IMG/VR virus record: IMGVR_UViG_2693429779_000006
DNA: 22,225 bases
Direction: 5' to 3' (one strand)
Source: a virus
Lineage: Duplodnaviria > Heunggongvirae > Uroviricota > Caudoviricetes
Shown here: piece after piece, positions 7,401 to 7,799 of the stretch
Position numbering within the stretch: position 1 is the stretch's first letter
Layout: the number at the start of each line of letters is the position of its first letter
The notes under the pieces: generated by a model
Database searches by the model: none
Told to the model about the DNA's origin: nothing
Seen by the model: only the letters and a program-made list of their open reading frames with translations
Position numbers and translations under genes: made by a program

Positions 7401-7799
7401 ATAGATTTGCTCGATATGCTTTTCTACACCAGCATATGCTACAGCCTGTTCTGAGAATAAGTACTGAGAATCAGAATTTGGTACGTTGTACCAGGCTACT
7501 ATGCTTCCGGTTAGGATGAAGGAACCGCCTGATACACCATTTTTATGTGGTAGTTCTCCACCGTATATAACGGGTAATCCAGTAGTTGGTGAAGTACTTC
7601 TACTTAGTGAGTCTGCTACATCACCGTATCCAGAAACCCCGATTTGACCTAACATAGAACTTGCAACTAATGACAAAGATCCGGCTGCTGCACCCCAACC
7701 TATTGCTGCTAATGCTGTACCTCCTGAAAAGTACACAGCAGCCGCGACGACAACTGCCGTAATTATGGCTCCAAAAAAGCCCCCTAAACTCTTACCCAT
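4497..7799 (-). CDS. Tail tip / host specificity protein (lambda gpJ-like) with an N-terminal gpI-like segment
   Basis: 1100 aa. N-terminal Gly/Ala-rich hydrophobic segment [17 protein letters not shown]...[15 protein letters not shown]...[10 protein letters not shown] resembles the lambda gpI C-terminal region. [14 protein letters not shown] resembles the gpJ core. A fibronectin-III-like segment ([21 protein letters not shown]) and a Ser/Thr-rich C-terminal receptor-binding-like region follow. Sits downstream of the minor tail genes. Confidence 0.8.

Follow-up and report, generated by a model that had tools for sequence, protein, structure and literature searches.

Tail-Tip Hubs with Separate and Joined I and J Parts

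In phage lambda, residues ~101–223 of the tail protein gpI form a trimer inside the tail tip, with two helices predicted to be transmembrane (H1 and H2) and a plug at residues 159–175, and its C-terminal strands thread the gaps in the hub domains of gpJ by beta-sheet augmentation (PMC11101478, PMC10721106, PMC12617516). Upon binding to LamB the gpI plug loosens and H1 and H2 vanish towards the membrane (PMC11101478, PMC10721106, PMC12617516). Forms in which I and J are joined have also been reported. For example, the TAPI-C domain was defined, and the TAPI–TAPJ fusion noted in some prophages, in 2006 by Iyer, Burroughs and Aravind (PMC1779556), and the NlpC/P60 protein encoded next to such fusions was almost always devoid of a JAB domain (PMC1779556). 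In RcGTA and R4C, the megatron protein's N-terminal iris/penetration domain closes the channel (PMC7296036, PMC10276861). In phage T5, the tip of the pb3 plug corresponds to residues 233–236 (10.1101/2022.09.20.507954), and in the Aeromonas siphophage Avs-1 the N-terminal tripod of the hub protein gp23 resembles the lambda gpI assembly, according to its authors (PMC13612043). Finally, gpL, gpI and gpJ's N-terminal part taken together have been equated with T5 pb3 by Xiao et al., who also noted the parallel with RcGTA 13-14-15 (PMC10721106). Here, these systems are compared with a J-like tail-tip, hub and central-fibre protein of 1100 amino acids (aa) encoded at 4497..7799 on the minus strand of a 22,225-nt stretch of virus DNA (Caudoviricetes; IMG/VR record IMGVR_UViG_2693429779_000006), the whole of which is referred to as the window.

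The N-terminus of this protein is homologous to and collinear with the C-terminal part of gpI, the segment is conserved, the window has no separate I gene, and the body of the protein has a J/hub fold. Residues ~1–112 are probably the covalently attached equivalent of the virion-resident part of gpI (residues ~96–223, the TAPI-C part), acting as a plug or insertion element. The earlier note on this DNA had proposed that the I function is joined to J; this holds for the C-terminal TAPI-C half, and the ubiquitin-like half is absent. Joined layouts of this kind have been described before, in other phages and in gene transfer agents, and in this respect the present case is an ordinary one.

The J-Like Protein and Its N-Terminal Module

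The assignment of the 1100-aa protein is based on several independent searches. The PHROG scan gives phrog_31 'central tail fiber J' (E = 1.6e-61), and Pfam detects Phage-tail_3 (PF13550; 28.2 bits vs. a cut-off of 23), an fn3 domain at aa 505–585 and Phage_Tail_Tip (PF09327) at aa 927–1019 (E = 4.8e-20). Lambda J is aligned to it by hhalign with 97.6% probability. An AlphaFold2 (AF2) model of aa 1–500 (predicted TM-score 0.75) retrieves, by Foldseek, the hub proteins of T5, DT57C, Chi, lambda, JBD30, T1, and RcGTA with E-values from 1e-23 to 1e-13. The protein possesses both a hub, with the Phage-tail_3 domain and the hub-domain fold, and a C-terminal central fibre, with Phage_Tail_Tip and FNIII domains. 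Its start codon is credible because an AAGGA Shine–Dalgarno sequence lies 10–14 nt upstream of the ATG, the ATG and the stop codon of the K-like gene upstream overlap by 8 nt (ATGGGTAA), and the same start is found in other assemblies. The identical product is indexed in 229 blocks of the assembly collection; all of the 24 contigs read carry it, with the same gene start at the three places shown. Many of these blocks are on contigs of ~30 kb, and one is on a contig of 4.98 Mb. No megablast match to the tail-tip region was obtained in the collections of phage, plasmid, and complete E. coli genomes, and none of the four tail-tip proteins is matched by NCBIfam; the element is common yet missing from the curated phage set. 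Within the close family the N-terminal segment shows 52–92% identity, and homologues with 53–89% overall identity keep the N-terminus about as well as the body of the protein. Even homologues with as little as 20% identity have an uninterrupted reading frame.

Three parts can be distinguished within the N-terminal module (aa 1–112; 7464..7799, minus strand). The first is an uncharged, Gly/Ala-rich hydrophobic stretch at aa 4–59 (7623..7790, minus strand), assigned by composition and alignment as the counterpart of the gpI helices H1 and H2; it aligns with gpI 99–152, and D, E, K and R are absent from all of its 56 residues. A similar uncharged stretch of 60 residues is present in lambda gpI, from K97 to K158. 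The Gly plus Ala content of the J-like protein is 42% over aa 1–55 (the range to which this figure refers, aa 4–59 not having been computed separately), 33% over aa 1–90 and 15% in the rest, and all the 19-residue Kyte–Doolittle windows above 1.6 in the whole protein start in its first 60 residues. In the AF2 model the stretch has a predicted local distance difference test (pLDDT) value of ~25, as would be expected for a segment that becomes ordered only in the trimer or in the membrane. The second part is a short polar linker at aa 60–73 (7581..7622, minus strand), which occupies the position of the lambda gpI plug (159–175), is ~20 residues shorter, and has very low AF2 confidence; it is here that both hhalign and hmmsearch place their gaps. 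The third part, aa 74–112 (7464..7580, minus strand), contains the GLPVIYG motif followed by beta strands and, by conservation and AF2 modelling, is the putative counterpart of the C-terminal strands of gpI (LPVLYGEMRVGSRVV...). Across 25 diverse homologues P76 and G80 never vary, and Y79 hardly ever does. The strands at 77–79, 95–98 and 100–105 are modelled with pLDDT 70–80 and packed onto the hub body, aa 74–122 forming a continuous sheet with it. Relative to lambda gpI there is a family-specific insertion of 13 residues after PVIYGG. The motif reads VLPLVYGEQRVGS in the J-like protein of E. coli phage DCP80 and VLPVLYGEMRVGS in lambda gpI; in T5 pb3, IPVVYG is found at 264–269, ~28 residues past the plug tip.

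The Gly/Ala-rich, hydrophobic N-terminus of an 1100-aa protein described in the earlier note is borne out by the translation of 4497–7799 (minus strand), its composition, and its hydropathy. Both of the sequence strings quoted there are present, at aa 27–41 and aa 74–83, but the second (7551–7580) falls outside the interval 7600–7799 given for the segment; that interval covers aa 1–67 only, and the first 90 aa would correspond to 7530–7799.

Relationship of the N-Terminal Module to gpI

The relationship with gpI has been addressed by profile search, profile alignment with shuffled controls, pairwise alignment, and a search for intermediates. A profile built from ten N-termini, three of which come from distant J-like proteins and the rest from the close family, was compared with 177,635 distinct Protein Data Bank (PDB) sequences. 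Lambda gpI (8iyk_I, residues 99–208) ranks first (E = 6.5e-4) and T1 gp34, the gpI homologue of phage T1, ranks second (E = 0.018), and the alignment to gpI extends over the hydrophobic segment as well as the PVIYG strand. Against an alignment of 80 lambda-type gpI sequences, hhalign pairs residues 2–111 with gpI 96–212 at 78–88% probability, and a deeper profile of 25 sequences extends this to residues 2–123 and gpI 96–222 at 90%. The hhalign scores (34.6 local and 33.8 global) are above the maxima of 100 column shuffles (18.3 and 8.8) and of 100 block-wise shuffles in which the hydrophobic and polar halves were kept apart (24.7 and 17.3); with a reversed gpI template the scores are 15.3 and 7.6. 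In pairwise Smith–Waterman comparisons of the N-terminus with gpI and with the library proteins P0160 and P0171 (described below), using block-shuffled controls, z is ~3.8 to 6.1 and only 0–1 of 1000 shuffles reach the observed score. The query–gpI alignment is collinear through the non-hydrophobic motif SxxSP...LPVIYG.

The order of the parts has been also examined with an artificial concatenate of lambda gpI (96–223) and gpJ, which hhalign aligns collinearly with residues 2–492 of the J-like protein (98.5%, score 121); with lambda J alone the score is 97 and the alignment begins only at residue 111. In the concatenate alignment residues 110–140 pair with the N-terminal strands of lambda J (STQLLSVIDAISEGPIEG...LKSVLLNSTPVL), and therefore the lambda I|J gene boundary corresponds approximately to residue 106–112 of the J-like protein. 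At the other end, the start MGKSLGG falls exactly where the ubiquitin-like (Ubl) domain ends in lambda gpI (GAKSGG, 96–101) and in the full I–J fusions. The PDB profile, hhalign, and concatenate results agree with the proposal that the segment resembles the C-terminal region of gpI and not the N-terminus of gpJ. The features that define TAPI-C, a Gly-rich hydrophobic H1/H2 region followed by LPVLYG strands with detectable homology, are all found in this N-terminus. Pfam is blind to this relationship because Lambda_tail_I (PF06805) models only the Ubl half of gpI (residues 14–97).

A separate I gene is absent from the window, as had been supposed. No stand-alone I-like gene was found by searching 163 stop-to-stop open reading frames (ORFs) of at least 40 aa, in six frames, with hidden Markov models (HMMs) of lambda-type gpI, the sole hint being the J N-terminus itself (domain E = 0.15). 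Pfam and PHROG scans gave no I-family match among the neighbouring genes, and a ubiquitin-like beta-grasp domain (PF06805 or ThiS) is matched neither in the J-like protein nor anywhere in the window.

Intermediates and Distribution

A search of 1.84 billion proteins with the N-terminal profile (E ≤ 1e-3) returned 45 matches, which were sorted by length and match position, and 29 of the sequences were read. Fifteen of them are long J-like proteins (503–2324 aa) matched at or near the N-terminus; in 14 of these the match begins within the first 10 residues, the other, P0180, being matched at 52–125. Another 23 are short proteins with an N-terminal match that were judged to be truncated J-like fragments, and the seven inspected all run on into a J-like body past the PVIYG motif. 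Four are repeat proteins and evidently spurious. The remaining three are informative in a different way. P0162 (247 aa; E = 1.5e-4) is a true stand-alone protein of the gpI type, which a lambda-type gpI HMM matches with 99.8 bits from the Ubl domain through the hydrophobic part to the PIIYG strand. P0160 (2050 aa) and P0171 (1155 aa) are full I–J fusions consisting of a Ubl-like domain, a hydrophobic segment and TipJ. Their N-terminal domain of ~85 residues ends in ...IIHLPMGGGG and ...TLPQGGGGGG, respectively; that of P0160 matches ThiS (E = 0.0014) and Lambda_tail_I (E = 0.027), and that of P0171, scanned alone, is matched by neither, so that its Ubl assignment rests on resemblance to P0160. 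For P0160 the TipJ-family model NF040662 gives E = 2e-127, and FNIII-A_GpJ and Phage-tail_3 domains are present in P0160 and P0171 alike. The hydrophobic segment that follows the Ubl domain in these two fusions closely resembles that of the present protein (Smith–Waterman scores of 95–97 vs. a shuffle mean of ~47).

Complete I–J fusions of this make-up, with a gpI-like hydrophobic segment, are encoded by metagenomic phages (L008, 6001–9468; L009 and L010, 6001–12153), downstream of a DUF1833 (gpL-like) protein and of a 131-aa NlpC/P60 protein without JAB. Any removal of the Ubl domain from them would need a protease other than JAB. Searching viral contigs with the N-terminus of P0160 gave only partial matches, none of which included the Ubl region, and a further search for homologous proteins gave just three short fragments.

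The same layout recurs in other phages. In Vibrio phage 2.058.O and Roseobacter phage CRP-701, the order distal tail protein (Dit), hub, DUF6950, and J is conserved with no I gene, and the J-like protein has a hydrophobic N-terminus followed by a YG motif. The J-like protein of E. coli phage DCP80 (L002, 3827–7585; PQ671644.1) has the same N-terminal layout; its neighbourhood is unannotated, and the single upstream gene that was scanned encodes an RcGTA-type hub attachment-domain protein. DCP80 is a 141-kb genome classed within the Straboviridae (T4-like myoviruses), an unexpected home for a siphophage-type tip module. In the single-chain hub pb3 of T5, the IPVVYG...EGEIDG strands are located at 264–311, just past the membrane-inserting plug. 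A hydrophobic, gpI-like N-terminus is a normal feature of a whole set of J-like hub proteins. Kinship with gpI and normal membership of the gpJ family had been set against each other in the earlier note, but the two do not exclude one another: besides being akin to gpI, the segment is the usual N-terminus of these hubs.

Comparison with Known Systems

With lambda gpI and T1 gp34 (PDB 8IYK chain I and 9L9P chain A), the N-terminal module shares an uncharged, Gly/Ala-rich segment of ~56–60 residues, a polar stretch, and LPV(L/I)YG strands, and its gene position is identical to that of lambda I, between K and the body of J. In lambda, gpI is a separate polypeptide of ~200–250 aa encoded between K and J, whereas here the frame runs on into J, there is no other I-like ORF, and the product has no ubiquitin-like N-terminal domain.

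The fusions of the 2006 type are represented by P0160 and P0171. As in the present protein, the I-type hydrophobic and strand segments are continuous with TipJ and the adjacent K-like gene is devoid of JAB; in fact, the neighbourhoods of both repeat the pattern described in 2006, with a K protein of 131 aa that consists of NlpC/P60 only and has no JAB. In contrast, P0160 and P0171 keep the ~85-residue ThiS/Ubl-like domain ending in GGGG, and the J-like protein starts at precisely that boundary. A general coupling between the loss of Ubl and the loss of JAB from K was considered and rejected, since the Ubl-bearing P0160 and P0171 also have an NlpC/P60-only K.

RcGTA g15 and the R4C megatron also have a hydrophobic segment that forms helices at their extreme N-termini. 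The gene order Dit, hub, small peptidase-like protein, and megatron is likewise shared with RcGTA (PMC7296036), and its hub body is similar in structure (Foldseek 6tba_8A, E = 2.3e-13). Unlike the RcGTA partner hub, with its iron–sulfur cluster held by four Cys, the L-like partner of the J-like protein has one Cys, and the C-terminal half of the J-like protein is a lambda-like Phage_Tail_Tip fibre and not a fibre-binding domain. What sets the present case apart from the 2006 fusions is the absence of a Ubl domain, and from RcGTA the gpI-like sequence at the N-terminus, for which the PDB profile search detected no similarity to g15, together with an L-like protein lacking the iron–sulfur cysteines.

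The best structural match of the modelled body is T5 pb3 (PDB 7ZHJ/7ZQP; TM-score 0.62–0.65), in which a membrane-inserting plug directly precedes the IPVVYG...EGEIDG strands (10.1101/2022.09.20.507954). In pb3, however, HDI (the gpL equivalent), the plug, and the J core are all in one chain, and the plug refolds into the leg of a beta-hairpin and not into a pair of hydrophobic helices. Avs-1, which can be likened through its published description only, differs in having a separate spike and no J-type central fibre.

Origin of the Joined Form and Alternative Explanations

Whether the joined form arose by fusion is a separate matter. It is quite possible, if somewhat short of probable, that the N-terminus is that of an ancestral hub that was never split; the I gene of the lambda/T1 type would then have been split off between the PVIYG segment and the J strand that follows it, the released piece gaining a Ubl domain. 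The order plug, PV(V/I)YG and 'EGEIdg' strand is contiguous in the single chain of T5 pb3, and therefore the split I/J of lambda may be the derived state; the same contiguous order is present in the J-like proteins from E. coli, Vibrio, Roseobacter, and metagenomes. An N-terminal hydrophobic element also occurs in the RcGTA and R4C megatrons (PMC7296036, PMC10276861), and the equation of gpL, gpI, and gpJ-N with pb3 drawn by Xiao et al. (PMC10721106) points in the same direction. Against an unsplit ancestor, P0160 and P0171 look like secondary I–J fusions, from which loss of Ubl would yield the present form, and the hydrophobic segment is closer to those of P0160, P0171, and gpI than to T5 or RcGTA.

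An improbable alternative is that the J-like protein is a precursor, cut near residue ~110, at the lambda I|J boundary, by the JAB-less papain-like K/DUF6950 protein, which would free a gpI-like insertion peptide. The product of the adjacent gene is indeed related to NlpC/P60, processing of I by K peptidases was proposed by Iyer et al. (PMC1779556), and the boundary at aa ~106–112 matches the lambda I|J junction. Nevertheless, no cleavage motif was found, the sheet modelled for aa 74–122 is continuous with the hub body, and in RcGTA and R4C the N-terminal domain is visible within the intact megatron (PMC7296036, PMC10276861). If such processing did occur, it would provide a concrete substrate for the long-unexplained K-type tail assembly proteins, and the split (lambda) and joined forms would converge on identical mature parts.

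It is highly unlikely that the resemblance to gpI is merely compositional, the segment being a generic hydrophobic anchor or signal-like sequence unrelated to gpI. A number of results weigh against the equivalence with gpI, and this explanation draws on the single-sequence and TraT results among them. While the alignment suggested by the earlier note was positive with profile methods, pairwise BLASTP of the N-terminus was not significant (lambda gpI, E = 0.25; P0160, E = 7.3), its signal probably having been lost to composition adjustment and perhaps to low-complexity filtering. A single-sequence phmmer search of the PDB was not significant either (E = 3.6), although gpI was the sole match to the N-terminal region, and the isolated N-terminus matched PHROG in register but not significantly (phrog_32, E = 0.3–6; phrog_31, E = 0.048). 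The segment is compositionally biased: Gly/Ala-rich TraT membrane proteins score E = 0.04–0.5 against the profile in the same PDB search, and in the library search E-values of ~1e-4 are attained by the four unrelated repeat proteins, so that the E-values obtained are not far above the noise floor. In addition, aa 1–73 have no confident AF2 structure, being unstructured in the monomer model; a counterpart of the lambda plug was not detected by sequence in the shortened linker with either hhalign or hmmsearch; and RcGTA g15 is absent from the PDB matches of the N-terminal profile at E ≤ 10. On the other hand, none of the composition-keeping column or block shuffles attains the real hhalign score and almost none the Smith–Waterman score, the collinearity extends through a motif that is not hydrophobic, both top PDB matches belong to the gpI family, one true gpI and two Ubl–I–J proteins are among only 45 matches in 1.84e9 sequences, and 56 uncharged residues are too many for a signal peptide. 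The case for gpI rests on no single E-value and instead on the convergence of a recurring family, collinearity through the polar motif, shuffles, intermediates, and gene position. Finally, that sequencing error or a misplaced start codon joined a small I-like gene to J is scarcely credible given the identical product in all the contigs read, the frame kept in distant homologues, and the Shine–Dalgarno sequence with its coupling overlap at the start.

The Tail Module and Other Genes of the Window

The structural genes of the window are all on the minus strand, in the order large terminase, 176-aa ORF, portal, protease–capsid, tube–fibre, tail tube, two ORFs, tape measure, Dit, L, K, and J. Immediately upstream of J is the K-like gene (7792..8196, minus strand), whose 134-aa product contains DUF6950 only (Pfam E = 2.3e-8; phrog_2134) and no JAB/MPN domain; lambda K consists of Prok-JAB plus NlpC/P60, with just a weak match to DUF6950. 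It is preceded by the gene for a gpL-like hub protein of 207 aa (8196..8819, minus strand; phrog_2048 'tail protein', E = 7.7e-24), in the position of the lambda L gene and of the RcGTA hub gene (gp13; g13 in PMC7296036). This protein has a single Cys and therefore no 4Fe–4S site, unlike lambda gpL, T1 gp36, and RcGTA gp13. The distal tail protein (185 aa; 8819..9376, minus strand) is identified by phrog_1302 'distal tail protein' (E = 7.9e-17), and the tape measure protein (737 aa; 9961..12174, minus strand) by position, size, and its coiled-coil/Gly-rich sequence. Between the tape measure and Dit genes, a gap of 585 bp is filled by an ORF of 190 aa on the plus strand (9378–9950, TTG start), which has one hydrophobic helix and no Pfam match and is called as a gene in other assemblies too. 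Possibly it is a moron that the tail module has acquired.

Beyond the tape measure gene there are two small ORFs of chaperone size, and then the gene for the 157-aa tail tube protein (12910–13383, minus strand). Next to it is encoded a tail-tube-like protein with a fibre extension (883 aa; 13442–16093, minus strand), whose first ~150 residues are paralogous to the tail tube protein (both M..DIFSG..L.V). The tube domain is followed by approximately five tandem 'TRTVNGHVLSEDVVLSSEDTGSVPD' repeats and a fibre-like region, and a Peptidase_S74 intramolecular chaperone domain is located at the C-terminal end (aa 774–822); in appearance, the protein joins a tail-tube domain to a fibre that cleaves itself. 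A single protein of 614 aa (16842–18686, minus strand) comprises both the prohead protease (Peptidase_S78) and the major capsid protein (Phage_capsid), and the 176-aa ORF (20142–20672, minus strand) is situated between the large terminase and the lambda-family portal. At the other side of the tip genes, a phage lysozyme gene (2568–3017, plus strand) adjoins one for a SegE-like GIY-YIG homing endonuclease (2097–2531, minus strand), both lying downstream of the tail fibre genes; in a related chromosome (L013), an insertion sequence (rve transposase) occupies this region instead.

Proposed Function and Biological Significance

The equivalence with gpI would give the N-terminal module a defined role. 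Lambda gpI, T5 pb3, and the RcGTA/R4C megatron, together with the structures of lambda, T5, and RcGTA, suggest by analogy that its most likely function is that of a lumenal plug and outer-membrane insertion element. The module would consist of two Gly/Ala-rich hydrophobic helices (aa 4–59), the linker (60–73), and the PVIYG-led strands (74–112) built into the hub fold. [quoted passage not shown] After receptor binding, the hub domains would swing open and the freed hydrophobic helices would enter the outer membrane before the tape measure protein and DNA exit. With the strand segment in cis, neither beta-sheet augmentation in trans nor a separate I gene is needed.

The finding accounts for the missing I gene, whose virion-resident half is the N-terminus of J, in a prophage family where the gene is otherwise labelled just 'phage tail protein / fibronectin type III domain-containing protein'. 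No new mechanism is revealed by it. Clear sequence-level intermediates now link lambda gpI, the Ubl–I–J fusions, and the J proteins with a hydrophobic N-terminus and no Ubl domain, which had hitherto been treated mostly as structural analogues. This protein is also a natural 'in cis' version of gpI, useful for asking whether the hydrophobic helices truly enter the outer membrane. More generally, the comparison favours a picture of the siphophage hub as a single conserved unit that is divided into polypeptides at differing places.

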